A DNA stretch of 64,000 nucleotides from a virus, in the IMG/VR virus record IMGVR_UViG_3300045988_036168; one strand, 5' to 3'. Position 1 is the first letter of the stretch, and each line of letters starts with the position of its first letter. Under the pieces are notes generated by a model. That model worked only from the letters and a program-made list of their open reading frames with translations, searched no databases and was not told the DNA's origin. Shown here in pieces: positions 3,136 through 51,466 of this stretch. Both the position numbers and the translations under genes were made by a program.

Positions 3136-4308
3136 TTATGACGATGCTTTGAAGTTGTAGATGGGCCTGATAATCTCCAGCACGTCGCAGGTCGGGCCGA
3201 TGCAGCCCATGATCTCCTTCGTGTCCTTGTAGGCGAACGGCGCCTCGTCTATGGTGTCGTAGCTGATACAGGAGCTATGCACGTTCCGCATCGTCTCTCG
3301 GTAGGCTCCGAGAGAAATAGACTCTCGGGCTTTGCTGCGGGACATCAGGCGGCCAGCTCCATGCGGTGCCGACTGGTTCCAATCGTCGTTGCCCTTGCCG
3401 ACGCAGATCAGAGAACCGTCGCGCATATTCATCGGAATAATCAGGCGCTCGCCCTTCTTAGCAGACACAGCACCTTTCCGCAGGATCATGCTCTCGTGGT
3501 CAATGTAGTTGTGCACGGTCGTAAACTGCTCCTGCGGGACGATGTGCATAGCTTTCAGGATGGCCTTTGCGATGGCCTGACGGTTGGCCTCCGCATAACG
3601 CTGGATGATCTCCATGTCGTTCAGGTAATCGTCCATCAGTTCGCCGGTCAGGTACGCGAGGTCGGGTGCCCCGAAGTCGCTGTGCTGTTTTCTCAGTTCT
3701 TCCAGCGCACCGGCGATTTCCTTCTGCCGGCCAGCAGCCTTGTACTCGGTGACAACACGGCTGATTTCCTCACTGGTGGGCTTTGTCATGGCCTCCATCG
3801 CTCTGCGCTGGTGCCAGTTCGCCACCTCAAGGCCGAGCTTTCGGCTGCCGGTGTGGATCACCAGCCAGAGGCCGCCGCTCTTATCCTTGTCAACCTCGAT
3901 GAAGTGATTGCCACCGCCGAGCGTCCCGATGCTGAGGAGCGCACGGCTGTTGTCGATGCCGACGCATTTCAGGCCGCTCAGGTCGAACCACTCCTTCGGG
4001 TAGTTGTGAGTACAGAAACCGGCCGGCACATTCCAGCGGATGGCCTTGTCCAGCTCGTCAAGGTCGAGCCTCACCCGCCCCAGCTTGACGGCCAGCATAC
4101 CGCAGCCGATGTCCACGCCCACGAGGTTCGGGCAGACGCGGTCGTGAATGGTCATCGTCGTTCCGATAGTACACCCAGCGCCGGCGTGAACGTCGGGCAT
4201 GATCCGTACCTTGGAGCCGTCACTCACGGGATGGCGGGACAGCTTCTCAATCTGCTCCGTCGCTTCCTGCTCGATGGTCTTCGCAAAAATCTTCACATCA
4301 TTGGTCAT
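3136..4308 (-). CDS. rtcB: RtcB-family 3'-phosphate RNA ligase
   Basis: Motifs MPDVHAGAGCTIG, GVDIGCGM, GGGNHFIE, HTGSRKLG, HNY and APHGAGR in the RtcB order; GAAAGGAAAAG RBS. Confidence 0.85.
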   Translation of the reverse strand: MTNDVKIFAKTIEQEATEQIEKLSRHPVSDGSKVRIMPDVHAGAGCTIGTTMTIHDRVCPNLVGVDIGCGMLAVKLGRVRLDLDELDKAIRWNVPAGFCTHNYPKEWFDLSGLKCVGIDNSRALLSIGTLGGGNHFIEVDKDKSGGLWLVIHTGSRKLGLEVANWHQRRAMEAMTKPTSEEISRVVTEYKAAGRQKEIAGALEELRKQHSDFGAPDLAYLTGELMDDYLNDMEIIQRYAEANRQAIAKAILKAMHIVPQEQFTTVHNYIDHESMILRKGAVSAKKGERLIIPMNMRDGSLICVGKGNDDWNQSAPHGAGRLMSRSKARESISLGAYRETMRNVHSSCISYDTIDEAPFAYKDTKEIMGCIGPTCDVLEIIRPIYNFKASS

Positions 4309-6267: not shown

Positions 6268-7257
6268 TTACGCCTCGGGTTCGTCGTACTCGTAGCCGTT
6301 GGGCTCGTTCTCGTCAGCAGGCTCCTCGGTGACAGGCTCTTCCTCTGCGGCAGCGTCGGTCGCATCCGTCTCCTCGGTCGGCTCCTCTTCGCCCGAAGCC
6401 TCTTCCTCGGCGGCACCCTCCATGCCGACATGGGGAGAGTCGATGTCGAACAGAACCTCGCTGCAATCCTCACACTCAATGGAGATGTTCACGATCTCGT
6501 CATCGCCGTAGCCGACGCACACGACGGCGTGACCGACATGGGGGCTCAGCTTCTCAGCGGAGCAGTAGAACGGGTTCTCGGGGCTGGTCGCGGAGGACAG
6601 GACAACCTTGTTGCCCTGCGTACGGACGGTGTAATTGCCCATCGCCTCGGTGACGTTCATCGTCTCACCGATGAACTGGCGGAGCCAACCGAAGGGCTTG
6701 GACGGATCATGCGCGGGGTCGATGGCTTTCTCCTCAAACTCGCCAGCAGCGTCAGGAGTGGCATCCTCTGCGTCTGCGGGTGCAACTTCCTCTCCGTTGA
6801 TGACGTGGCTCTCTGAGGCCGCAGGAAGCCCTCTGGGCCCTTCGTCAACGACGTCATATTGGGTGTTGGCGAAGTCAGCAGAATCGCCGTCACCATCAAA
6901 GAGTGTGGTCTGGCCGTTGTCGATGTCGCGGTAGAAATACTGGCCGCTGGCCTTATCGAAGACCAGCTCGAAGTTACCGGAGAAGCTGCCGCTCTTCTTC
7001 TCCTTGCGCTGGATGACGTAGGCGACGGTGTGGTCGAACTTCGGCTTCGTCACCTCTCTGGTCTGATGGCCGCCGGCCACGGTGTAGTCGGGGGCCGAGT
7101 CATCGGTGAGGGTGATTTTGACCTTAATGTTGATCTCGCCGGTGTTCTGCTCCGTCTCGATCATGCCAGCCAGCACGTCGCGGAGCGTGGTGTCGAAGTC
7201 AGCGCACAGGCTGTTGAAAGCCTCGCCTCTCAGGGACAGAGAATAGTCCTTGCTCAT
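6268..7257 (-). CDS. hypothetical strongly acidic protein
   Basis: ORF track 6268..7275 trimmed to the ATG (MSKDYSL...) preceded by AAGGAGG; long D/E-rich middle and C-terminal tracts. Confidence 0.55.
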   Translation of the reverse strand: MSKDYSLSLRGEAFNSLCADFDTTLRDVLAGMIETEQNTGEINIKVKITLTDDSAPDYTVAGGHQTREVTKPKFDHTVAYVIQRKEKKSGSFSGNFELVFDKASGQYFYRDIDNGQTTLFDGDGDSADFANTQYDVVDEGPRGLPAASESHVINGEEVAPADAEDATPDAAGEFEEKAIDPAHDPSKPFGWLRQFIGETMNVTEAMGNYTVRTQGNKVVLSSATSPENPFYCSAEKLSPHVGHAVVCVGYGDDEIVNISIECEDCSEVLFDIDSPHVGMEGAAEEEASGEEEPTEETDATDAAAEEEPVTEEPADENEPNGYEYDEPEA

Positions 7258-7271
7258 GGTATTTTCCTCCT

Positions 7272-7502
7272 TCATTTTGTCGTGTCGCGGATGTACTTGT
7301 TTCGGCAGGCTTCACAGCAGAAGTCGTGCCACTCGCCATCCACCTTCGTCGTGATCCATCCGAGCCGCTCCCGCAGCTCTTTCCGGTGGGCCTTCGAGTC
7401 GATGTCCTCGCTATCGAACGGGAACGAAACGTCCTTGCCACAGCAGTCGCACGAGTACACGGCTTCGCCTTCCCAATAGCCGCTAAACTCCAGATCTCTC
7501 AT
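7272..7502 (-). CDS. small Cys-rich (zinc-ribbon-like) protein
   Basis: ORF track; CDCCGK...CCEACRNKY; 4-nt overlaps on both sides. Confidence 0.55.
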   Translation of the reverse strand: MRDLEFSGYWEGEAVYSCDCCGKDVSFPFDSEDIDSKAHRKELRERLGWITTKVDGEWHDFCCEACRNKYIRDTTK

Positions 7503-8212
7503 TCGTCCGTCCCATCCTCGCCCATGAAGACCGAGCCGGCCCGCATCGCTCTGCGCTGGATCTCCTCCAGCAGCGTCGCCGTGCTGATGCCGTCAAGGCT
7601 GGGCAGGCCATTGCCGCCGCAGCAGTCGCATTCGCCGCAGCAATCTTCCTCAACCTCGTCGTCCAAAGAGACCAAGAGGTCAGAGTTAAGAAGCAAAGCG
7701 GGGCGGATGCCGTTCGAGCTGGATGCGTAGTAGTTGACGTAGTAGCCATCGGTGCTGACGTACCACACGAAGCTGGTGTCGTAGGTGATCGGGGAGCGGA
7801 GCCACCGACACGCCCAAGGCGTGACGAGCCAGTACCAGTCATCCTCGTTCAGCGGGATCAACTCCTTGAACTGGCCGTACTGCCAGAGCGTCAGGGGCGC
7901 CGCCTTGACCGTGATGGTGCCGTAGCTCTTGCTACGGTCGGTGCAGCTCAGATCCACCTCAAACGGGAGAATGGCCGCGGCCTCCTCCGATGTGCGAGGC
8001 AGGGCCTCCACCCACTTGTCGATGCGCTCCTTCAAGGTGGAGCGGGTGTAGTCGTTGCGGTTCTCCGCATCGTCCTTGTCGTTGAACGGGCAGGACTCCT
8101 TGCTCTGAGCCAGCAGGACGAACGTGGAGCCGTCGCGCTGTTCCATAACAACGAACTTTTCACCGGCGAAGTTGAAAATGCGGCCGGGGCTGAGTTTTGC
8201 GAGTTTCTTCAT
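7499..8212 (-). CDS. DUF6273-like protein with Cys-rich tail
   Basis: Pattern FVVMEQ...NDYTRSTLKERIDKWV...GIRPALLLNSDLLVS; the GIRPAL segment is shared with the tail-fibre-like gene at the right edge. Confidence 0.5.
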   Translation of the reverse strand: MKKLAKLSPGRIFNFAGEKFVVMEQRDGSTFVLLAQSKESCPFNDKDDAENRNDYTRSTLKERIDKWVEALPRTSEEAAAILPFEVDLSCTDRSKSYGTITVKAAPLTLWQYGQFKELIPLNEDDWYWLVTPWACRWLRSPITYDTSFVWYVSTDGYYVNYYASSSNGIRPALLLNSDLLVSLDDEVEEDCCGECDCCGGNGLPSLDGISTATLLEEIQRRAMRAGSVFMGEDGTDE

Positions 8213-12543: not shown

Positions 12544-13161
12544 TTATTTGTAAGACTGTTCATAGTCGTACAGACATTTCAGCGCCCCGACTACGCGGCA
12601 TCTGGCGGGGTCTTTGGCCGGGAACTCGCGGAACGACCACTTCCCGTCCTTTTTCAGATGCAGGATGTGCTTTCTCTGCGGTGTGATGCCGTGGGAAATA
12701 AGTGCCTGCGAGTAGGCTTCAAGCTGGACACCGCAGGCCATTTCCAGCAGCGTGTACGTCGTCTTGAAGTCGATAAGCTCCAGCAGGCCGCCAATCTCGC
12801 AGAGCAGGTCAATCGTCCCGCCGTAGCGCATCAGCTTATGGTAGATGCGCACCTCAGAGCCGAAGACCCGCGGTTTATACTGCTTCCACCACTCCACGAA
12901 GCCGTTGAAGTAGCCGCGATGCTCCGACGGAATATCGTCGATGCCGAACTTGATCCAGTTCTCGATGCTGTTATGCACCGCAGAGCCTTTGATGGCGGCG
13001 TTCTCAAGCGTCCGCTTGCTGATACCGCCGTAGCACTGGTCTTTCAGCGGCTCCATCAGCTTCGACACGCTCGGGATGATGTCGCCGTTCAGCCGGTAGA
13101 TATGGCTGGCCTCGTCGAAGGTCAGCTCGGGCAGTTCAGGAACCTCAACCGTCATACCCAT
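12544..13161 (-). CDS. PD-(D/E)xK exonuclease (RecB/Cas4-like fold), likely RecT partner
   Basis: ASHIYRLNGDIIPSVSKLM N-terminus and GTIDLLCEIGGLLELIDFKT (D...E-x-K) core. Confidence 0.55.
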   Translation of the reverse strand: MGMTVEVPELPELTFDEASHIYRLNGDIIPSVSKLMEPLKDQCYGGISKRTLENAAIKGSAVHNSIENWIKFGIDDIPSEHRGYFNGFVEWWKQYKPRVFGSEVRIYHKLMRYGGTIDLLCEIGGLLELIDFKTTYTLLEMACGVQLEAYSQALISHGITPQRKHILHLKKDGKWSFREFPAKDPARCRVVGALKCLYDYEQSYK

Positions 13162-15383: not shown

Positions 15384-15412
15384 ATTATAATTATCCACGT
15401 GGCTAATGTCAA
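15384..15412 (-). promoter_or_regulatory. leftward early promoter TTGACA-17 bp-TATAAT with operator O2 in its spacer
   Basis: Minus-strand -35 at 15412-15407 and -10 at 15389-15384; operator ATTATCCA-CG-TGGCTAAT at 15390-15407 fills the spacer. Confidence 0.7.
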
Positions 15413-15443
15413 TAGTTTTTTGCAGTTTTATCGCAAAAAATGT

Positions 15444-15479
15444 TTGCGATTTTACCCAAAGAGCTTTACAATGGCTAAT
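15444..15479 (+). promoter_or_regulatory. rightward promoter of the repressor operon (TTGCGA-17 bp-TACAAT) with abutting half-site TGGCTAAT
   Basis: -35 at 15444-15449, -10 at 15467-15472, half-operator at 15472-15479; ~35 nt upstream of the AAAGGAGAAG RBS of 15514..15852. Confidence 0.55.
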
Positions 15480-15513
15480 ACAAACAATCACGCTGGCAAA
15501 GGAGAAGCACATC

Positions 15514-15852
15514 ATGGAACTCGAACTCGATTTTACCGCCTTCAAGAAGAACCTGCGCGACCTAATTGAAAGCAGGGGTCTCTACGCCAAGGACATCGCC
15601 GCAGAGATCAACGTCTCAACGCCTACCCTGTCGAGATACCTTCAGGGCGTCCGTGAACCCGAACTCAAGTACGTCGTTCGGCTCGCCCGCTACTTCGGCG
15701 TTTCTGTTGACTGGCTGCTGGGCCTCAGCAACGACCGCTACGAGGCAGTCCCCACAGAAGTCCGCGAGTTTGCCACTCTGTACGCTCTGGCCTCGCCAGA
15801 TGACCGTACCATCGTCGAAACTGTACTCAAAAAATATCGAGAGGAGAACTAA
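15514..15852 (+). CDS. CI-like XRE-family HTH repressor (112 aa, no peptidase domain)
   Basis: ORF track 15406..15852 trimmed to MELELDFTAFKKNLRDLIESRGLYAKDIAAEINVSTPTLSRYLQGVREP; heads the plus-strand operon that ends in the integrase. Confidence 0.75.
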   Translation: MELELDFTAFKKNLRDLIESRGLYAKDIAAEINVSTPTLSRYLQGVREPELKYVVRLARYFGVSVDWLLGLSNDRYEAVPTEVREFATLYALASPDDRTIVETVLKKYREEN

Positions 15853-15854
15853 CC

Positions 15855-16772
15855 ATGATCTTCGGCAAAGACTTGGGACGTTCTGCCTTCTTTGCCGAAA
15901 TCGGCTCGGAGGTTGAACGTCTGGACAGCATCCCCAGCAACTACACAAGCCTCGTCTGCATTGGGCAGGGCGTCAGCCTCACCGATACCGTAGGACGTGA
16001 GTATCGCATCGACCTGTTCATCTCGCCCACCGGCTGTATCGCCGTTCGGCTCCCCCCTCCCCTTGCCGGTGCGTCGCCGACCGACGCCGATCCCAAGCAT
16101 CTACGCCGCGTTGCCTCCATTGTGCGGGCGTGGAGCGTGGAGCAGCTCAACGAGGTCTGTGCCGACCATTTCTACCACGCCGAAGGACAGGCCGCCGACA
16201 TCATCGACGTCCTCGTTCGCGCCGGTCTTGCGGGTTTCTCCGACAAAGGCAATGTCAGCAAGGCTCTCGCCGCAACGCTGGCCGGTGGCGAATTACTCTT
16301 CGAGGTCATCGACTCAGCCTCCGCACACAAGGTCTTTACCAGCCGTGAACTCATTGACCGATTCTCTGCCGCAAAAGGCGTTGACCCAGACGACGTGACC
16401 GAGTTCATCGGTGCCCTCGAAGTCATGGACGGCTTCAGCGCCGTCTCCATCGGCCGCGAGATCATCGTTCAATATGCTCCGCTCGGCGACGGCCGCCCGT
16501 ACCAGCTCTTCAAGTTCACCATCGGGCAGCATCGCTCGGACGTGGTGGCCGAGCCCCGTGTCACCCGACACCAGCTCCAGAGCAACGGGCGAGGTCCTGC
16601 CGAGGCCGACAGTTTCTTTGAGGCCCTCATTCCCTATGCGGACACGGCCTCAATGCAGCCTGCACCAGACGGCTCCATCAGTGTCTTGCCTCTCAGCATT
16701 GACGCCCTGATGGATGGCACGATGGGGCTTGTGGCAGCGGCCAGAGGCTTCGCAAAAGCAGTCTCGCAATAA
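15855..16772 (+). CDS. hypothetical protein (305 aa) of the lysogeny operon
   Basis: ORF track; GAGAGGAGAA RBS; starts 2 nt after the repressor stop; no motif recognised. Confidence 0.65.
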   Translation: MIFGKDLGRSAFFAEIGSEVERLDSIPSNYTSLVCIGQGVSLTDTVGREYRIDLFISPTGCIAVRLPPPLAGASPTDADPKHLRRVASIVRAWSVEQLNEVCADHFYHAEGQAADIIDVLVRAGLAGFSDKGNVSKALAATLAGGELLFEVIDSASAHKVFTSRELIDRFSAAKGVDPDDVTEFIGALEVMDGFSAVSIGREIIVQYAPLGDGRPYQLFKFTIGQHRSDVVAEPRVTRHQLQSNGRGPAEADSFFEALIPYADTASMQPAPDGSISVLPLSIDALMDGTMGLVAAARGFAKAVSQ

Positions 16773-16820
16773 AAACACATACGGGGCATCGCAGCAGCGG
16801 TGCCCCAAAACTATATCTAA

Positions 16821-16872
16821 CGGTTACGTTACGTTTACGGTATAGGTTACGGTTACGGTATGGTTACGGTTA
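16821..16872. repeat. degenerate tandem hexamer array (CGGTTA-like, ~9 units)
   Basis: CGGTTACGTTACGTTTACGGTATAGGTTACGGTTACGGTATGGTTACGGTTA, between the 305-aa gene and the integrase. Confidence 0.6.
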
Positions 16873-16877
16873 TACAC

Positions 16878-16909
16878 GGAACGTCCGTGGATTTTTGGTC
16901 GGACGTTCC
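16878..16909. promoter_or_regulatory. perfect 10-bp inverted repeat with T-rich centre (candidate attP core or int regulatory site)
   Basis: GGAACGTCCG (16878-16887) - TGGATTTTTGGT - CGGACGTTCC (16900-16909), 31 nt upstream of the integrase ATG. Confidence 0.45.
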
Positions 16910-16940
16910 TATGGAATATCCCGAAAAAGGAGGACTTCGT

Positions 16941-18659
16941 ATGGCTTCTCGCATCGCCGAGAAACTGGCCGCGAAGAAGGCGGCCATCTATATTCGCGTT
17001 TCTACTCATTGGCAGGTGGACAAAGACTCCCTCAAAGTTCAGCGCCGCGAACTTATCGCCTATGTCACGCTGGTGCTGGGCATCACCGACTACGTCGTGT
17101 TTGAAGACCCCGGCTACTCGGCCAAGAACACAGACCGCCCAGAATATCAGGCCATGATGGATCGCATCCGCGCAGGCGAGTTTACCCACCTTGTCGTCTG
17201 GAAGATTGACCGTATCAGCCGCAACCTGATTGACTTCGCCGCCATGCACGACGAACTGCAGTCCCTCGGTGTCACCTTCGTCTCCAAGAACGAGCAGTTC
17301 GACACCTCCTCCGCCATCGGTGAGGCCATGATGCGCATTATCCTGATTTTCGCCGAGCTGGAGCGCAAGACCACCGCCGAGCGCGTCACGGCCGTCATGC
17401 TCTCCCGTGCCTCAGACGGTCAATGGAATGGTGGCCGTGTTCCCTTCGGCTATTCGTGGTCGAAGGAAACAAAGACATTCTCCATCGTCCCCGAGGAGGC
17501 AAAGGCCATCCGCCGCATGGCCGAACTGTACGAGCAGTACCAGTCCTTGCTCTATGTCGCCAAGTACCTCAACGACGCCGGTATCGTCACGAAGACGGGC
17601 GGCCAATGGACGCCAACCACGGTGCGCACCATCCTGACAAACCCGTGGTACATCGGCCAGTATGTCTATAACGTCCACTCAGACGGCAAGGGCATCGAGA
17701 AGCGCGACTCTGACGAATGGATCACCGTCGAGAACCACCACGAACCCATTCTGAACGAAGATGTATTCTGCCGCATGAAGTTCCTGCTGACTCGGAACAA
17801 GCGCGGCGGCGTTCCCTCTCACAAAACATACGTCAGGAAGAACATCCACGTCTTTGCTGGCCTGCTCCGCTGCGGTCAGTGCGGCTCCAACATGACAGCC
17901 AACCTCGACCGGCGGCGAGCGAACGGCTTCCGCCCCTCCCAATACGCCTGCGGCAGCCGGCGGCGCAAAGGAACCTCCTGCACCAACAAGTACATCTCCG
18001 ACACCACGCTCGGCCCGTTCGTCCTGAACTACGTCGCCAACATCATCAGAGCCTCCAAGAACTTTTCTGAGACCACGACGCCCGATGTTCTGGAGCGTAA
18101 GCTGCTCCGCGGCGAAGCGTTCGAGGACGTGGCCTCCGTCAGCACCGACGCTCTGGGCCAGCTTCTCGATGCGTTCCGATCCGCCGGTGACGCCGTGGAG
18201 TACCGCCCGCAAATCGCCTTCTCCGGTGATGACAACTCCATCCGTGAAATTGACACCCTCCGCGCTCGGCGCCGCAAGCTCGACAACGCCCTCGCTCGTT
18301 TGAACGCCCTGTACCTCTACGACGACGAAGCCATGCCAGAGAAAGACTTCGTCATGCAGCGCGGCCAGATCACCAAACAGCTCGAAGAAGTCAATGCCCG
18401 CATTGAGGAACTGCAGAACCAAGAGTCCAGCGAGGAACTGGGCGACGACTTCATCGGCAAGGCCAGCTACTACATCATGGCGAACAAGCTGATCGAAGAC
18501 CGCTACATCGACTACGAGAAGTACATCCGAGCCATTGACCCCTCTATCCCGCGCAGCTTCCTCCAGCAGATCATAGACCACATCGTCGTGAACGATGGCC
18601 GCGTCACCTCCATCACATTCAAGAACGGTGCGACCCACACATTCACCTACAAGACATGA
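16941..18659 (+). CDS. large serine recombinase (phage integrase)
   Basis: ORF track 16860..18659 trimmed to MASRIAEKL... after AAAAGGAGG. Has the resolvase catalytic motif AAIYIRVSTHWQ, a recombinase domain, a Cys cluster CGQCGSNM...C and a C-terminal coiled coil. Confidence 0.85.
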   Translation: MASRIAEKLAAKKAAIYIRVSTHWQVDKDSLKVQRRELIAYVTLVLGITDYVVFEDPGYSAKNTDRPEYQAMMDRIRAGEFTHLVVWKIDRISRNLIDFAAMHDELQSLGVTFVSKNEQFDTSSAIGEAMMRIILIFAELERKTTAERVTAVMLSRASDGQWNGGRVPFGYSWSKETKTFSIVPEEAKAIRRMAELYEQYQSLLYVAKYLNDAGIVTKTGGQWTPTTVRTILTNPWYIGQYVYNVHSDGKGIEKRDSDEWITVENHHEPILNEDVFCRMKFLLTRNKRGGVPSHKTYVRKNIHVFAGLLRCGQCGSNMTANLDRRRANGFRPSQYACGSRRRKGTSCTNKYISDTTLGPFVLNYVANIIRASKNFSETTTPDVLERKLLRGEAFEDVASVSTDALGQLLDAFRSAGDAVEYRPQIAFSGDDNSIREIDTLRARRRKLDNALARLNALYLYDDEAMPEKDFVMQRGQITKQLEEVNARIEELQNQESSEELGDDFIGKASYYIMANKLIEDRYIDYEKYIRAIDPSIPRSFLQQIIDHIVVNDGRVTSITFKNGATHTFTYKT

Positions 18660-18664
18660 GAAAA

Positions 18665-18693
18665 GCCCCGGCCTCATATACTGAGGTCGGGGC
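18665..18693. terminator. bidirectional terminator-like hairpin after the integrase
   Basis: 11-bp stem GCCCCGGCCTC / GAGGTCGGGGC with one wobble pair; AAAA before it and a weak T-run after it on plus, so TTTTCTC follows it on minus. Confidence 0.5.
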
Positions 18694-18855
18694 CATCTTA
18701 TGCAGTCTATGCAGTATCGCCGCAACATTATGCGTCAAAAAAGTTGTTCAATTTTATAAGCATCCCCTCAAAGCTAACGATGCGTGATGCTTTCCGGTTA
18801 TCCACGCGGCTTTTTCTGCTTTTTGCGCCGGTTAAGCCGTTTTCCTCGAAAACCT

Positions 18856-18972
18856 TTATTTTTCGGGCTTTTCGCCGTTTTCAGCCTTGGATGGCATCAC
18901 GTCTCCAATGAACATCGCATCACCGATGCTCACGCGAAGTGTGATTTTCGGATTTTCTGCATAGTAATTCAT
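18856..18972 (-). CDS. small hypothetical protein (38 aa)
   Basis: Not in the ORF track. ATG at 18972 preceded by GGAGGGAACG (MNYYAENPKITLRVSIGDAMFIGDVMPSKAENGEKPEK); last ORF of the toxin-antitoxin operon. Confidence 0.35.
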   Translation of the reverse strand: MNYYAENPKITLRVSIGDAMFIGDVMPSKAENGEKPEK

Positions 18973-38662: not shown

Positions 38663-38876
38663 CTGAGATTCCACAGCTTTTCTCCTCCTTGTCCGTCAGC
38701 CGCTTCAACGCGGCCGCTTGCTCTTCGATAAGGTCTGCGGCAGCCTTTGCCACCGTGCCGGCGCATTTGAACCGTGCTGGCCGCTCAAACGCAGGGCATT
38801 GCTCCTTCGGGCAGCGTCCTGTTTCGATGGCCGATTGATGGCATCGAAGCGCCAAAAGAACTTCTTGCGGTGTCAT
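38655..38876 (-). CDS. hypothetical protein (73 aa)
   Basis: ORF track 38655..38939 trimmed to MTPQEVLLALRCHQ... (TGATG overlap with the methyltransferase stop). Confidence 0.5.
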   Translation of the reverse strand: MTPQEVLLALRCHQSAIETGRCPKEQCPAFERPARFKCAGTVAKAAADLIEEQAAALKRLTDKEEKSCGISDV

Positions 38877-39649
38877 CAGCCCACCTCCTTGCTGTGGCTT
38901 CTGCAGCACTCGCGGAGGCGGGTGCGCATCACGTCGCAATACTGCTTTTCATTCTCAATGCCTATGTACTGCCGCCCCGTTCTGCAGCAGGCAACACCGA
39001 TGGAGGCACTTCCAGCGCAGCAGTCGAGCACGACCTCGCCGGGGTTGGTATATGTGAGCACCAGTCTCTCGCACAGCCATACCGGCTTCTGCGTCGGGTG
39101 CAGGTGGCTCGTCTGCTTATCGCTGGGGCCTTTGACAACACTTCGCGGGTAGCGGTCTGTGTTGCCGCCGCCCTTGACTTCCTTCGTCGCCTTCTGGTAG
39201 ATCTCAGTGCGGTTCTGCGTGTCGATGTAATGGGTGTAGCTGTTCACCGGCTGATGGCCGTCCGTCTTCTGCGGGTTGTACGTCGGCTGGCGGCGGTAGA
39301 AAATCAGGATGTTCTCATGCGCCCGCATGGGCATTCGCTTCGCATTTAGATGGCCGGTGGCGTTGCTCTTCTCCCAGATCCACTCGTACCGCAGATTTCT
39401 CAGGTTGCTGCATCCCAGCACCTTGTCGAACGGCGTCTGCGCAAACAGAGCTACCGCTCCATCCTTTTTCACGACGCGGTCGGCTTCGCTCCAGAACGCA
39501 TCAAGGTCAATCGGCGTGTCCCACTTGCAGTTTGTTCGCCCATACGGCAGATCCGTGAAAAGGAAATCCACGCTTCCCGCCGGCAGGAGCCGCATCCCGT
39601 CGATGCAGTCTCCCAAATAGGTCTTATAGTTCCAGTCTTTGCGCTCCAT
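38876..39649 (-). CDS. beta-class N4-cytosine/N6-adenine DNA methyltransferase
   Basis: Catalytic FTDLPYG (DPPY-type) precedes HPTQKPVWLCERLV...GEVVLDCCAGSASIG (the SAM motif), which is the PF01555-like order. Confidence 0.75.
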   Translation of the reverse strand: MERKDWNYKTYLGDCIDGMRLLPAGSVDFLFTDLPYGRTNCKWDTPIDLDAFWSEADRVVKKDGAVALFAQTPFDKVLGCSNLRNLRYEWIWEKSNATGHLNAKRMPMRAHENILIFYRRQPTYNPQKTDGHQPVNSYTHYIDTQNRTEIYQKATKEVKGGGNTDRYPRSVVKGPSDKQTSHLHPTQKPVWLCERLVLTYTNPGEVVLDCCAGSASIGVACCRTGRQYIGIENEKQYCDVMRTRLRECCRSHSKEVG

Positions 39650-46282: not shown

Positions 46283-46307
46283 AAGTGTATTGCTCCTTTC
46301 GTCGTTC

Positions 46308-46336
46308 TTGACAGCGGCCGGCAGCCATGTTACACT
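46308..46336 (+). promoter_or_regulatory. plus-strand promoter TTGACA-17 bp-TACACT with extended TG, inside the leader of the minus-strand operon
   Basis: -35 at 46308-46313 and -10 at 46331-46336, preceded by TGT. Confidence 0.45.
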
Positions 46337-46342
46337 TACCTT

Positions 46343-46427
46343 GCTCAGAGGTGTGTAACGCAGTCACAGGTGGCTGCCGAACCGCCGGAACCCTTGGTGT
46401 TGCAAGCACTGAGGGTTCTTTTTTGTT
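46343..46427 (+). ncRNA. candidate ~85-nt cis-antisense RNA opposite the 5' leader of 46010..46282
   Basis: Starts ~7 nt after the plus-strand -10. Ends at the 7-bp hairpin GAACCCT/AGGGTTC (46388-46394 / 46412-46418) followed by TTTTTTGTTT. No plus-strand ORF with an RBS. Confidence 0.4.
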
Positions 46428-46439
46428 TCCTGTGATTTG

Positions 46440-46467
46440 ATTATAACATTTTACCTACCTAAAGCAA
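46440..46467 (-). promoter_or_regulatory. promoter E: TTGCTT-16 bp-TATAAT sharing the cassette spacer TAGGTAGGTAA
   Basis: Minus-strand -35 at 46467-46462 and -10 at 46445-46440; the spacer is homologous to cassettes A-D but there is no downstream operator. Confidence 0.5.
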
Positions 46468-46488
46468 GATAGGTGCGCGGTAATAACA

Positions 46489-46506
46489 TTTAACCGTTCG
46501 GATAAC
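46489..46506. promoter_or_regulatory. operator-like site TTTAACCG-TT-CGGATAAC upstream of promoter E
   Basis: Fits the 18-bp operator consensus with mismatches at the two outermost positions; lies ~22 bp upstream of the promoter E -35. Confidence 0.4.
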
Positions 46507-46509
46507 AGC

Positions 46510-46548
46510 AAAAACGCGAAAAAGCCCTGCGTCAGACGACGCGGGGCT
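46510..46548 (-). terminator. intrinsic terminator after the HTH gene 46578..46931
   Basis: 11-bp stem AGCCCTGCGTC/GACGCGGGGCT with one mismatch, followed on the minus strand by TTTTTCGCGTTTTT. Confidence 0.6.
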
Positions 46549-46577
46549 ATGCTCGTTTTTACGCTCATATACTTTGC

Positions 46578-46931
46578 CTATCTCTCTTTCAGAATGACCC
46601 CGGCCATCTCCGCAAGCATCTCAATCTGGGACGGTGTCGGATCGGACTCAGAAAAAATTTTTTGAATTTTTTCGGCCTCCGTGCCTTCCACGAGGTCTGG
46701 CAGGATATAATTCGGTGAAACTCGTAATTCGCGGCATAAAGTGGCGAATACCGGCAGGCTCGGCAACTTCTTTCCGCCCTCAATCTGGCGCAGATACGTC
46801 GAATTGATGTTGCAAGCCTCTGCCAGCTTCTCAGCCGTCAGGCCGCGGTCTTTTCGGGCTTTGTTGATTCTCGTTCCAAATAGCTTCTTGTCCACTTTTT
46901 GCTCCTCCAATAATGTATGCCGTCGGTTCAT
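46578..46931 (-). CDS. XRE-family HTH regulator divergent from the nuclease gene
   Basis: ORF track 46578..46946 trimmed to MNRRHTLLEEQ... after AGAGGTGG. HTH segment: LFGTRINKARKDRGLTAEKLAEACNINSTYLRQIEGGKKLPSLPVFATLCREL. Confidence 0.7.
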   Translation of the reverse strand: MNRRHTLLEEQKVDKKLFGTRINKARKDRGLTAEKLAEACNINSTYLRQIEGGKKLPSLPVFATLCRELRVSPNYILPDLVEGTEAEKIQKIFSESDPTPSQIEMLAEMAGVILKER

Positions 46932-46960
46932 ACCACCTCTTCTCATAGCTTACAGCCCCG

Positions 46961-46989
46961 TTGACGCTCACGAAATCCACTGTTAGAAT
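46961..46989 (+). promoter_or_regulatory. promoter of the nuclease gene: TTGACG-17 bp-TGT-TAGAAT (extended -10)
   Basis: -35 at 46961-46966 and -10 at 46984-46989 with TG at -15/-14. A divergent minus-strand TGG-TATAGT element for the HTH gene lies in the same 90-bp gap. Confidence 0.55.
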
Positions 46990-47037
46990 ATAGGCCATGA
47001 GCCAGTAGACTATACCACATGAACGGAGGATATTTTC

Positions 47038-48123
47038 ATGGGTCTTTCAGGGTCTAAACTCTACCGCCTTTCCGGTGGCACCGTCATCCCGGCCAGCGAG
47101 GCTCTATATCCCGCAGAGGCCGATCTTCAGCAGCTTATTGCAGAAAATCCGCAACTGCTGCTCAGCTCCCCCAATGAGGGCCAGCGCCTTTACCTGTTGC
47201 GTCGAGAACAGCCCGTGCGCGATGCTCCAGATGGGCCAGCCCTTTTCTCCATTGACCATCTCTTCATTGACCAAGACGGTCTTCCCGTGCTCGTCGAGGT
47301 GAAGCGGAGCACCGACACCAGAATCCGCCGCGAGGTCGTAGGCCAGATGCTCGACTACGCCTCCCGTATGCGGGCGTGGAGCGCCAGCGAACTCAGGTCG
47401 TCCGCGTCGCTTCTGGATGTTCCAGATGATCTATGGGCCGCTCTCGACGGCAATCTGAAGGCCGAGCGGATGCGGCTGATTTTCGCGGCAGACTCTATCC
47501 CTGGCTCCTTGGCCTCCATGATCGACTTCCTCGACCGCAGCATGGACGCTATCGAGGTCTGCGGCGTCGAGATTAAGCGGTACGTTTCCGAGGACGGTGC
47601 CGAGCTGATCTCCTCCACGATTGTCGGCGGTGGCAATTCGCCTGTCAAGCGGGCTGCCAGATACTCCACTATCTGGGACGCCGACAGCATGGCCGAGCAG
47701 CTCAACCAGCGCGAAAACTCAGCCATCGTTCCGGTTGTCGCCGCTCTCACATCGTTCGCCTCCAGCGCCGGTCTGCAGATCAGTTATGGCCGCGGGACGA
47801 AGTTTGGCGTGTGCAGGGCGCTTCGGAACGGCCGCAAGGTATTTAGTGTGACCTCGTGGGAAAAGGGCCATACGGGTCTCAGGACAGCCGTTGAGGTATC
47901 TTTACCGTCGTTGGTAGACCAGACCTGCGGCACGTTCGAGGAAGGTGCGCTACGCTCCATGCTCCTGACGTTCCCCGACGCTTCCCCAGCCGACGCCGAG
48001 CAATTCATCTTCGGCTCCAGCCAGTTCCAGTATATCGACCTGCGATTACTTGCAGAGCCATCAAACCTCTCGCATTTCCAGAACGCCATCACTCAAATCG
48101 TTCAGGCCATCCCTGAAGAATAA
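47038..48123 (+). CDS. NucS/DUF91-like PD-(D/E)xK nuclease-domain protein with unknown ~165-aa C-terminal domain
   Basis: SIDHLFIDQDGLPVLVEVKRSTDTRIRREVVGQMLDYA gives D73...E87-x-K89...Q103...Y107, as in NucS-type nucleases. ACGGAGGAT RBS. It is the only substantial plus-strand gene in 40 kb of minus-strand genes. Confidence 0.6.
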   Translation: MGLSGSKLYRLSGGTVIPASEALYPAEADLQQLIAENPQLLLSSPNEGQRLYLLRREQPVRDAPDGPALFSIDHLFIDQDGLPVLVEVKRSTDTRIRREVVGQMLDYASRMRAWSASELRSSASLLDVPDDLWAALDGNLKAERMRLIFAADSIPGSLASMIDFLDRSMDAIEVCGVEIKRYVSEDGAELISSTIVGGGNSPVKRAARYSTIWDADSMAEQLNQRENSAIVPVVAALTSFASSAGLQISYGRGTKFGVCRALRNGRKVFSVTSWEKGHTGLRTAVEVSLPSLVDQTCGTFEEGALRSMLLTFPDASPADAEQFIFGSSQFQYIDLRLLAEPSNLSHFQNAITQIVQAIPEE

Positions 48124-48127
48124 GAAA

Positions 48128-48168
48128 AGCGGCTACGCCCCGAAATGGAGCATAGCCGCTATTTTACT
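48128..48168. terminator. bidirectional terminator between the convergent nuclease and GIY-YIG genes
   Basis: 8-bp stem AGCGGCTA/TAGCCGCT (48128-48135 / 48153-48160); ATTTTACT after it on plus and TTTTCTTATTC after it on minus. Confidence 0.55.
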
Positions 48169-48245: not shown

Positions 48246-48761
48246 TTACCGATGCCACAGCTCCTCGGAAACCTCGACCGACTCTTCTTTGAGTGCAGAG
48301 AGCCGTTCCTCGAACTCGTATTCCGTGATTTCGCCCGTCTTCCGCAGGCCGCGGAGTATCGAGATCTCCTGCGGGATCTCCGCATAGCGTTTCCGCAGGT
48401 GGTCAATGCGGGAGTCCTGCTTCGCAATCTCCTGCCGCCACCCTTCCCAGAGCGGCGTCGTGAACTCCTTCCATTCCAACTCAGGCAGCGTCACGCTCAG
48501 GTCATCCCTCGCCTTGTCGTCCACGTTCAGTGGCGGATGGAGCCGCAGGATGTAGTAGATCTCGTACAGGTTCATATCCGCTTCGCTCCCCAACTCCGCA
48601 TACTCGATCTTCGTCACCTGCTCTATGTTGACGGTGCGGTGCATCGGCTTGCTGAACAGGTGGCCGCGTATTCTGCTCTGCAGCGGCTGCTTGGTGCGGC
48701 CAACGTACACGAGGCAGCCCCCGTACCAGATCCGATAAATCAGGAACCCTTGCACCCTCAT
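48246..48761 (-). CDS. GIY-YIG nuclease-domain protein with C-terminal helical domain
   Basis: ORF track trimmed to MRVQGFLIYRIWYGGCLVYVGRTKQPLQSRIRGH...NLYEIYYILRLHPPLN (GIY...YVG...R..H...E...N pattern); ATGA coupling at 48758. Confidence 0.55.
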   Translation of the reverse strand: MRVQGFLIYRIWYGGCLVYVGRTKQPLQSRIRGHLFSKPMHRTVNIEQVTKIEYAELGSEADMNLYEIYYILRLHPPLNVDDKARDDLSVTLPELEWKEFTTPLWEGWRQEIAKQDSRIDHLRKRYAEIPQEISILRGLRKTGEITEYEFEERLSALKEESVEVSEELWHR

Positions 48762-50866: not shown

Positions 50867-51466
50867 TCAGTCGATGAACCGGATGTTCTCCGCCGCCGTG
50901 CTCCACACCTTGCCGTGCTCGTCCTCGACAATGCCCGTTGTGACAGGGACGGCCCCATTATCGAACTCCTCGAACGTGCTTCCCCATGTGTGGAACCATG
51001 CGACAAATTCATCCTCGCGCCACCCGTCGTTCGTGCGCTCATACACATGGGCGATGCACTTACGGCAGGTCGGCACGGGTGGCTTCCCGCGCAAAGGCCC
51101 TCCCTCCTGCCACGGGCGGAACTGCTGGATCTTTTCCAGCAGGCCCTTCGGATTGCCGTCGAAGAGCAAGGCTCGGTCATCGACATAGACCTTCGCAGGT
51201 GGCTTTTCCGCCGCCACATCGTCAACCTCAATGCCGTTCTCCCGAAGGTAGCGCCGCACCGCTCCCATGCCCTCAGGCGTGGCGCATCTGGTGGACACGA
51301 CCACCACTCTGTACCCCGCGGCTCTGATCCGCTTGATTTCTTCGTCAATGAGCGACACGGGCGGGTCGGGTACAACGCCTGCGCCCTGCCAGCCACTCAC
51401 ATAGGAATGGATGACGCCGTCAAAATCCAGCACCACATTCGGCTGATACTTCATCTCCCAAGCCAT
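50867..51466 (-). CDS. HAD-like phosphatase-fold protein with extra C-terminal domain
   Basis: VVLDFDGVIHSY (DxDxV/T motif), VVVVSTR, KPPAKVYVDDRAL. Confidence 0.5.
   Translation of the reverse strand: MAWEMKYQPNVVLDFDGVIHSYVSGWQGAGVVPDPPVSLIDEEIKRIRAAGYRVVVVSTRCATPEGMGAVRRYLRENGIEVDDVAAEKPPAKVYVDDRALLFDGNPKGLLEKIQQFRPWQEGGPLRGKPPVPTCRKCIAHVYERTNDGWREDEFVAWFHTWGSTFEEFDNGAVPVTTGIVEDEHGKVWSTAAENIRFID

Follow-up and report, generated by a model that had tools for sequence, protein, structure and literature searches.

NucS-like PD-(D/E)xK nucleases are known both as repair enzymes and as parts of defence systems. NucS/EndoMS, the mismatch endonuclease of archaea and actinobacteria, is a housekeeping enzyme with an N-terminal barrel, an active site of the form D...ExK...QxxxY and a C-terminal motif that binds the sliding clamp. 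Shedu is a single-gene nuclease from the NucS-like branch of the PD-(D/E)xK fold, in which a variable N-terminal sensor is followed by a C-terminal nuclease. END-Mag, plaque-assayed as an END-family defence nuclease, consists of a NucS-like nuclease fused to an inactivated EndoIII sensor (PMC12191111). Madara, a protein of Escherichia coli ECOR34 that PADLOC lists as PDC-S11, is a single-protein modification-dependent restriction enzyme: it restricts phage T4 with glucosyl-hydroxymethylcytosine and not T4 with plain cytosine, a D63A substitution in its NucS-like N-terminal nuclease abolishes defence, and its C-terminal domain is distantly EVE-like (bioRxiv 10.64898/2026.09.05.749240, September 2026). 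Here we analyse a gene for which these are among the closest known systems. It lies at 47038-48123, on the plus strand, in a 64,000-nucleotide stretch of viral DNA (IMG/VR record IMGVR_UViG_3300045988_036168; hereafter the window) and codes for a protein of 361 amino acids (aa), in which a NucS-like nuclease is joined to an undescribed C-terminal domain. We give about an even chance to the following reading: the gene is a moron of a temperate phage that infects an Oscillospiraceae-like gut host, and on its own it provides an anti-phage nuclease, with the C-terminal domain reading incoming DNA.

A first-pass annotation, made from the letters of the window alone, had called this open reading frame. 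The call is borne out by an ATG start that follows a GGAGGA ribosome-binding site (47025-47030) at a distance of 7 nt and by an independent ENA assembly, where a contig of 104,607 bp carries the same gene call and an identical protein. The AlphaFold 2 model of the protein (predicted local distance difference test, pLDDT, 88.9) has two domains, and residues 200-209 are its sole segment with a pLDDT below 50. Foldseek comparison with the PDB returned PD-(D/E)xK nucleases throughout, with NucS (2vld) first (E = 4e-4) and EndoMS (5gke) next, followed by Exo5, SfsA, SduA (8ps4) and Card1. In an alignment of 39 homologs, reaching down to 30% identity, E57, D73, E87-V-K89, R90, R98-E99, Q103, Y107, W133, F149, D152 and E178 are invariant in all 39 sequences, a set that reads as the RecB/NucS-type PD-(D/E)xK signature with its QxxxY helix. 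The nuclease core proposed at first (D73, E87-x-K89, Q103 and Y107) is fully contained in this set, E57 is to be added to it, and the fold is supported by the model and by the Foldseek matches. By sequence, the PDB yielded nothing but spurious repeat matches with designed armadillo proteins, and nothing at all with the family profile; Pfam gave nothing above threshold for the 39 family members, and no PHROGs family matched the nuclease. Among viral models the best Foldseek match to the full two-domain model was gp54 of Bacillus phage G (BFVD G3MBC4, E = 2.7e-10 over 331 aligned columns), which may be a very distant relative from a cultured phage, though tblastn sees no sequence similarity in deposited phages.

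The only significant family match came from PADLOC, whose PDC-S11 model PDLC04916 aligned residues 10-195 of the protein with profile positions 9-182 of 358 (E = 1.9e-9). PDC-S11 models were matched by each of the 39 family members (best E = 2.4e-20), several of which also matched PDC-S18. The protein shares the plan of Madara, an N-terminal NucS-like nuclease, a linker and a C-terminal domain of about 150 aa, at nearly the same length (361 against 358 aa); the nuclease halves are homologous, and in both cases a single gene stands without a methyltransferase partner. The suggestion that the gene is related to defence nucleases holds in this form: its nuclease half is homologous to a PADLOC candidate later found by experiment to be modification-dependent. 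Judged by sequence, the window protein appears to be, in its cutting half, a sister of a validated type IV-like enzyme, and its family a large uncharacterised sister group of PDC-S11. The two systems differ in the other half and in setting. The C-terminal domain of Madara is, by description, EVE-like, whereas that of the window protein is an alpha/beta domain with a weak best match to YjbR/YdhG-like proteins and no PUA/EVE match; Madara resides in a BREX-linked enterobacterial island and the window gene in a Firmicute prophage.

Membership of two other families, both raised in the first-pass annotation, was not borne out. NucS hidden Markov models (HMMs) of NCBIfam scored far below their cut-offs (NF003270, 17.3 bits against 216; NF002876, 14.8 against 252), and Pfam NucS_C matched weakly in 4 of the 39 members. 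The N-terminal half-barrel, the DNA-binding and dimerisation domain of NucS, is missing: the AlphaFold 2 model has only a beta-hairpin at residues 8-22, with the core starting from about residue 25. NucS/EndoMS is the best structural match for the nuclease domain and shares its active site, but the window protein has the short hairpin in place of the barrel, carries an unrelated C-terminal domain of about 150 aa and is mobile and phage-borne rather than housekeeping. A role in NucS mismatch repair was rejected on the HMM thresholds and the missing N-terminal domain. The Shedu domain PF14082 (SduA_C/DUF4263) reached 16.6 bits against a threshold of 27, aligned over profile positions 4-60 of 159, and the order of domains, nuclease before putative sensor, is the reverse of that in Shedu. 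With END-Mag the protein would share the combination of a NucS-like PD-(D/E)xK module and a separate, swappable sensing domain in a single defence protein; the END-Mag sensor, however, has the helix-hairpin-helix EndoIII/Ogg fold, to which neither Foldseek nor Pfam matched the putative sensor of the window protein.

The C-terminal domain (residues 210-361), modelled alone, is predicted with high scores (pLDDT 94, predicted template modelling score 0.88) as an alpha/beta fold with a four-stranded meander. It matches no Pfam family. The best PDB match by Foldseek was E. coli YjbR (2fki, E = 0.03, TM-scores 0.45/0.56), with the YdhG-like 9t2w next. A profile of the domain, searched against 1.84 billion proteins, matched 2,303 clusters at 50% identity, and 1,028 of these matches reached E <= 1e-10. 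Most of the best 150 matches carry a NucS-like N-terminus or are fragments of such proteins, and 15 among these 150 are full-length proteins with no NucS-like N-terminus. Two of the latter kind (P0144 and P0231) start with DUF262 domains matching SspE and BrxU, which are GmrSD-type type IV enzymes. Four (P0207, P0246, P0254 and P0222) have a pair of CBS domains, confirmed by a PDB match for P0207 and read by eye in the rest, together with an RxxxxH HEPN-like segment read by eye; P0238 looks Ser/Thr-kinase-like, also by eye, and P0122 has two copies of the C-terminal domain. Some members of the GmrSD/BrxU/SspE group (DUF262 plus DUF1524) thus share this domain with the window protein, which has neither DUF262 nor DUF1524, so that only the accessory domain is common to them. 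Identity to the window protein across the family is 41-68% in the nuclease half and 13-29% in the C-terminal domain, the latter diverging at two to three times the rate of the former. A fast-evolving, mobile domain found on several immune-type effectors looks like a sensor or specificity module.

In contig L010 a 322-aa DUF4268 protein (7036-8004) overlaps the start of the family homolog P0090 by 4 bp, and its N-terminus has a NucS-like 'ENQ...DH.HLGK..TY' motif. At the end of P0123, P0207 and P0254, all of which have the C-terminal domain, a DUF4268-like segment can be seen by eye. The overlap and these segments hint that modules have been shuffled more widely. Identification of the C-terminal domain itself as DUF4268 was rejected, as hhalign against the L010 protein gave 2% probability and aligned the nuclease motif region only.

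The gene has its own expression signals. A promoter scan found a sigma-70-type promoter at 46961-46989 (TTGACG-17-TAGAAT with an upstream TG, score 10/12), in agreement with the promoter first proposed. In L018, a contig of a related phage lineage whose nuclease is 45% identical, the -35 TTGAC and the -10 GTTAGAATA are unchanged while the spacer and flanks have diverged, which argues that the promoter is functional. The terminator assigned to the gene is real but does not serve it alone. Its hairpin is bidirectional and is stronger on the minus strand (-27.7 kcal/mol, z -6.8, tail UUUUCUUAUUC) than on the plus strand (-20.4 kcal/mol, z -3.9, tail AUUUUAC); it would end the nuclease transcript and also halt the incoming minus-strand operon before antisense read-through. 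On its other side the gene is bordered by a terminated XRE gene and a restart promoter (Table 1). Searches of Rfam gave no match in the window or in the control regions.

The orientation of the gene is exceptional, as the first-pass annotation had noted. All other genes between 37 and 58 kb of the window are on the minus strand according to the gene calls of the ENA contig, and so are all genes between 19 and 35 kb, judged from the gene calls of a 95%-identical prophage. A second plus-strand block, at 15406-18659, is the lysogeny module. The plus strand is the 'lysogeny strand' of the phage, and the nuclease gene is the only other substantial gene on it.

Table 1. Positions of the features discussed, in coordinates of the window
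Feature	Position	Strand	Basis or remark
Nuclease domain, residues 1-199	47038-47634	+	NucS-like PD-(D/E)xK fold
Interdomain linker, flexible, residues 200-209	47635-47664	+	pLDDT <50; variable length in the alignment
C-terminal alpha/beta domain, residues 210-361 and stop	47665-48123	+	putative sensor/target-recognition module
Catalytic codon E57	47206-47208	+	
Catalytic codon D73	47254-47256	+	
Catalytic codon E87	47296-47298	+	
Catalytic codon K89	47302-47304	+	
Catalytic codon Q103	47344-47346	+	
Catalytic codon Y107	47356-47358	+	
Nuclease promoter, -35	46961-46966	+	promoter scan
Nuclease promoter, extended -10	46984-46989	+	promoter scan
Bidirectional intrinsic terminator	48128-48160	both	between the nuclease gene and the convergent gene 48246-48761 (-)
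Divergent control region	46896-47037		nuclease promoter, ribosome-binding site, candidate operator pair
Candidate operator ATAGCTTAC	46945-46953	+	one of a pair flanking the nuclease promoter
Candidate operator ATAGTCTAC	47005-47013	-	the other of the pair
XRE-family helix-turn-helix regulator, 105 aa	46578-46895	-	Pfam, PADLOC, ENA gene call
Intrinsic terminator of the XRE gene	46510-46548	-	hairpin then UUUUUCGCGUUUUU; -23.8 kcal/mol, z -3.75; U-runs follow
Promoter TTGACA-17-TACACT	46308-46336	+	in 46283-46577
Strong terminator	46387-46419	+	in 46283-46577
Extended -10 promoter TTGCTT-16-TGtTATAAT	-10 at 46445..46440	-	would restart the minus-strand operon
Second HTH_3 protein	15406-15852	+	lysogeny module, 5' of the serine recombinase
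Large serine recombinase (integrase)	16860-18659	+	lysogeny module
C5 DNA methyltransferase, 620 aa	22487-24349	-	
N6/N4 methyltransferase	38876-39649		
Candidate third methyltransferase, 253 aa	26803-27564	-	NPPF motif only
PDDEXK_1 nuclease	12544-13161		near the RecT gene
RelB/YafQ toxin-antitoxin pair, 91 + 91 aa	19273-19820	-	Pfam on same or near-identical genes, related contigs
PemK-like toxin, 176 aa	37621-38151	-	Pfam on same or near-identical genes, related contigs
RtcB-type RNA ligase	3136-4308	-	PHROG, E = 4e-129
HAD domain of 'Swiss Army Knife' RNA-repair proteins	50867-51466	-	weak match

A search of 5.8 billion proteins returned more than 3,800 relatives, nearly all 340-390 aa long, which are without Pfam domains and named 'hypothetical' wherever they carry a name. 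At least 487 species of bacteria and archaea have the family in their genomes, mostly outside phages; the range extends from Oscillospiraceae (39-40% identity, the closest) to Planctomycetota, Actinomycetota, Chloroflexota and methanogenic archaea. Among 50,697 deposited phage genomes neither megablast nor tblastn gave a match at E <= 1e-3, and only noise appeared at E <= 10; the family is thus unseen in cultured phages. We found seven distinct phage contexts in which a homolog stands alone on the opposite strand of a one-directional gene array. The window lineage, with 14 near-identical IMG/VR contigs that carry the nuclease, is one. Another is the lineage of contigs L018 and L119, which is syntenic with the window and includes the helix-turn-helix gene (65% identical), with flanks 60-62% and the nuclease 45% identical. 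In a third context the gene lies between early genes and a block of S-adenosylmethionine synthetase, Dam-like methylase and terminase genes, in a fourth it lies in an early region with PemK, HD, RusA and DnaC genes, and in a myophage it lies between the tape-measure and tail-chaperone genes. The remaining two contexts are the viral contigs L121 and L122. Signals of its own against the flanking operons and unrelated positions in different phages are the marks of a moron, and the autonomous opposite-strand layout first noticed in the window is accordingly one that recurs across phages.

Chromosomal homologs are found in variable regions, some of them directly after WYL/WCX regulators. One shares an island with an integrase, an SNF2 helicase and an Eco57I/MmeI-type methylase of 1,753 aa; other homologs neighbour McrBC, NERD, PIN, type I restriction enzymes, a C5 methylase, a Schlafen-like helicase or PDC-S02. 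Some homologs thus stand beside defence genes or an integrase, but at the 37 genomic loci compared the neighbours are mixed and include housekeeping genes. No conserved operon partner was found among 147 flanking open reading frames at these loci or across the phage contexts, so the functional unit appears to be one gene.

The divergent gene next to the nuclease encodes an XRE-family protein with significant Pfam matches (HTH_19, 42.9 bits against a gathering threshold of 30.2; HTH_3, 42.2 against 23; E = 5e-11 to 8e-11). It also matches the PADLOC models HTH_VI, capH and the restriction-modification control-protein models, and weakly the NCBIfam models of HipB-like and MqsA-like antitoxins. 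The regulator and its terminator, both predicted earlier, are real, but the likely start is a GTG at 46895, with a GGAGGA ribosome-binding site, as called in ENA, and not at 46931; the frame is open to 46946. The gene is 65% identical to its syntenic counterpart in L018, and the stem of its terminator is conserved in L018 and L119. A promoter of consensus type was not found for it in the control region by the promoter scan; the one minus-strand 'promoter' reported by the scan, at 46894-46867, was discarded because it lies within the XRE coding sequence. The candidate operator ATAGTCTAC is an imperfect inverted copy of ATAGCTTAC, and both 9-mers are conserved in L018; as candidate XRE-site 9-mers of the control region they are written ATAGCTTAC and GTAGACTAT. 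Their common pattern ATAGNNTAC, which was defined post hoc, occurs 5 times in the window against 1.5 expected. Among the phage contexts compared, the XRE neighbour was seen in the window and the L018/L119 lineages only: it is not beside homologs in the other phage contexts with Pfam-annotated gene calls, nor is it a recurrent neighbour in genomes. The proposal that regulator and nuclease form a module is not upheld by this distribution, since a lineage-specific partner points to a unit of a single gene. The XRE protein could equally be a regulator of the phage.

The window is a temperate phage. Its lysogeny module contains, besides the recombinase and the HTH_3 protein that precedes it, a 305-aa open reading frame, also upstream of the recombinase on the plus strand. 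The 95%-identical prophage lies in a 182-kb bacterial contig with host-like flanks, so lysogens of such phages exist, and the lysogenic state assumed earlier is supported by this integrated relative together with the serine integrase. Homology between window and prophage stops at 18908 (15442 of L103), beside the integrase gene, which places the attachment site probably in 18660-18908; beyond the breakpoint are the host-like genes tgt, Wzy_C and glycosyltransferases. The window also encodes RecT, DnaD/DnaC-like replication proteins, RtcB, an endolysin and a dUTPase. Of the three methyltransferases attributed to the phage, the C5 and the N6/N4 enzymes were confirmed, while the third has an NPPF motif only, and its homolog has no Pfam match on record. 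It is a reasonable candidate idea that the nuclease discriminates by modification, in keeping with the methyltransferases of the phage. The exact 620-aa C5 methyltransferase was found in 765 blocks of a public assembly index, and the phage lineage must therefore be very common in gut metagenomes.

Under the reading that we favour, the lysogen would transcribe the nuclease gene whether or not the lytic programme is running. The amount of nuclease would be limited by the XRE protein, which may act at the two conserved ATAGNNTAC sites on either side of the promoter. The C-terminal domain would recognise a feature of incoming foreign DNA, most likely non-canonical or modified bases, as do Madara, the END nucleases and GmrSD/BrxU. 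On recognition the nuclease domains would be licensed to dimerise in the manner of NucS and would cleave the incoming DNA; the host chromosome and the methylated genome of the prophage would not be substrates. The lysogen would gain immunity to superinfection by rival phages. The layout of the protein is that of a type IV enzyme, with a nuclease, a separate putative sensor domain and no cognate methyltransferase in the unit.

Several observations weigh against this reading. In the 11 proteins examined the PDC-S11 match ends at profile positions 182-216 of 358, that is, after the nuclease half and the linker, with scores of 35-70 bits that are far under what true members would give. No full-length match that includes the C-terminal half was obtained, so the putative sensor half may differ from the 'EVE-like' domain of Madara, and what is known of Madara comes from one preprint. 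Neither Foldseek nor Pfam detected a recognised modified-base-reader fold; Foldseek gave nothing significant for the C-terminal domain and no EVE, PUA, SRA, YTH, ASCH, winged-helix or EndoIII reader. The domain is neutral to acidic (median isoelectric point 5.9) and the whole protein is acidic, which is atypical for DNA binding. Its presence on non-DNA effectors (HEPN-like, kinase) would fit a generic infection sensor equally well. The genomic neighbours, finally, are heterogeneous, with defence genes in a minority and ordinary housekeeping genes among them.

These points leave room for other explanations. Tentatively, and with somewhat less confidence, we can see residues 210-361 as an undescribed, widespread immunity sensor, with at least 2,300 clusters at 50% identity and at least four effector types (NucS-like nuclease, GmrSD/BrxU, CBS/HEPN-like and kinase). 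Its fusion to the nuclease would then be a new single-gene defence, an antisense moron by which gut phages exclude rivals, and would read a cue, either a class of DNA modification or a phage product, outside the range of the known reader domains. A system of the Shedu or abortive type seems to us rather unlikely. There the C-terminal domain would auto-inhibit the protein and sense a phage protein, free DNA ends or some other cue, upon which the nuclease would cut indiscriminately or at phage DNA ends. Such a scheme agrees with the weak SduA_C matches seen in 11 of the 39 members (best family E 2e-4), with SduA 8ps4 among the Foldseek matches and with a C-terminal domain that is not basic, shows no known base-reader fold and is fused to RxxxxH/HEPN-like and kinase effectors. 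The SduA_C score is nevertheless below the Pfam threshold, the closest characterised relative of the nuclease half is modification-dependent, and the same C-terminal domain occurs on GmrSD/BrxU-type type IV enzymes.

The same single gene with its own expression signals, at unrelated positions that include a tail-gene module, could be expected of a selfish element resembling a homing endonuclease, which would spread by cutting phage genomes that lack it and bring the host no benefit. We regard this as improbable. The family lives mostly outside phages, the gene has stayed syntenic in two phage lineages and diverged in step with its flanks (45% identity, neighbours 60-65%), and proteins of the GmrSD, HEPN-like and kinase types have the same C-terminal domain. 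An opposite-strand position is usual for morons and not for homing endonuclease genes. Quite improbable, too, is a role in the phage's own life, such as breaking down host DNA, recombination or NucS-like mismatch repair, even though two repair enzymes, NucS and EndoMS, are the closest among solved structures and the phage encodes RecT and replication genes. The NucS HMM scores of 15-17 bits against 216-252 and the absent N-terminal domain stand against it, as does a gene that faces every lytic operon, fenced by terminators, in seven phage contexts and has no homolog in deposited cultured phages. A partnership with RecT as exonuclease is unlikely because the separate PDDEXK_1 nuclease gene sits near the RecT gene; the nuclease gene is not needed for recombination. 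Least probable of all we consider an addiction pair of toxin-antitoxin type, in which the nuclease would be the toxin, the XRE protein its transcriptional antidote and stabilisation of the prophage the outcome. XRE helix-turn-helix proteins are common antitoxins and controllers, this one has the weak antitoxin-like and control-protein matches described above, and the phage has other toxin-antitoxin genes (RelB/YafQ and PemK). The two genes, however, are divergent and do not form an operon, and homologs in the other annotated phage contexts and in genomes do without an XRE neighbour.

The nuclease half is of a known kind, the NucS-like single-protein restriction of PDC-S11/Madara and END-Mag. 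What is new here is its combination, as a phage antisense moron, with an undescribed domain shared with GmrSD-type and other effectors; this exact architecture is covered neither by Pfam, PHROGs, NCBIfam and full-length PADLOC models nor by the literature that we found. All that we say of function is what we infer; on that footing the gene makes a good candidate for defence that experiments can test, and its putative sensor domain is new and interesting. If the favoured reading is true, a function would be given to a very common family with thousands of bacterial and archaeal members, no Pfam entry and 'hypothetical' names. The family would enlarge the growing set of single-protein restriction enzymes of NucS-like type, to which Madara and END-Mag belong, and a new swappable sensor domain would be defined. 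It would also be a clean case of temperate gut phages arming their hosts, with the same gene placed backwards in early, late and even tail-gene modules of unrelated phages, and would bear on gut phage-host dynamics and on phage therapy design.

The surroundings of the nuclease gene offer some further observations. The convergent gene beyond the bidirectional terminator encodes a 171-aa protein with weak, sub-threshold GIY-YIG and SHOCT matches, 60% identical in L018. Downstream of the XRE gene, the stretch 46283-46577 has 87% column identity between the window and L018/L119 and is more conserved than the flanking coding DNA, whose proteins are 60-65% identical. The plus-strand promoter and terminator found in it would yield an RNA of about 85 nt (46343-46428), for which Rfam has no match. 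This predicted RNA would be antisense to the 5' untranslated region of the restarted minus-strand operon. Pairing in the terminator stem within the stretch survives three one-sided changes. Elsewhere in the window, the RtcB gene and the HAD-domain gene together suggest RNA-repair counter-defence against anticodon nucleases.

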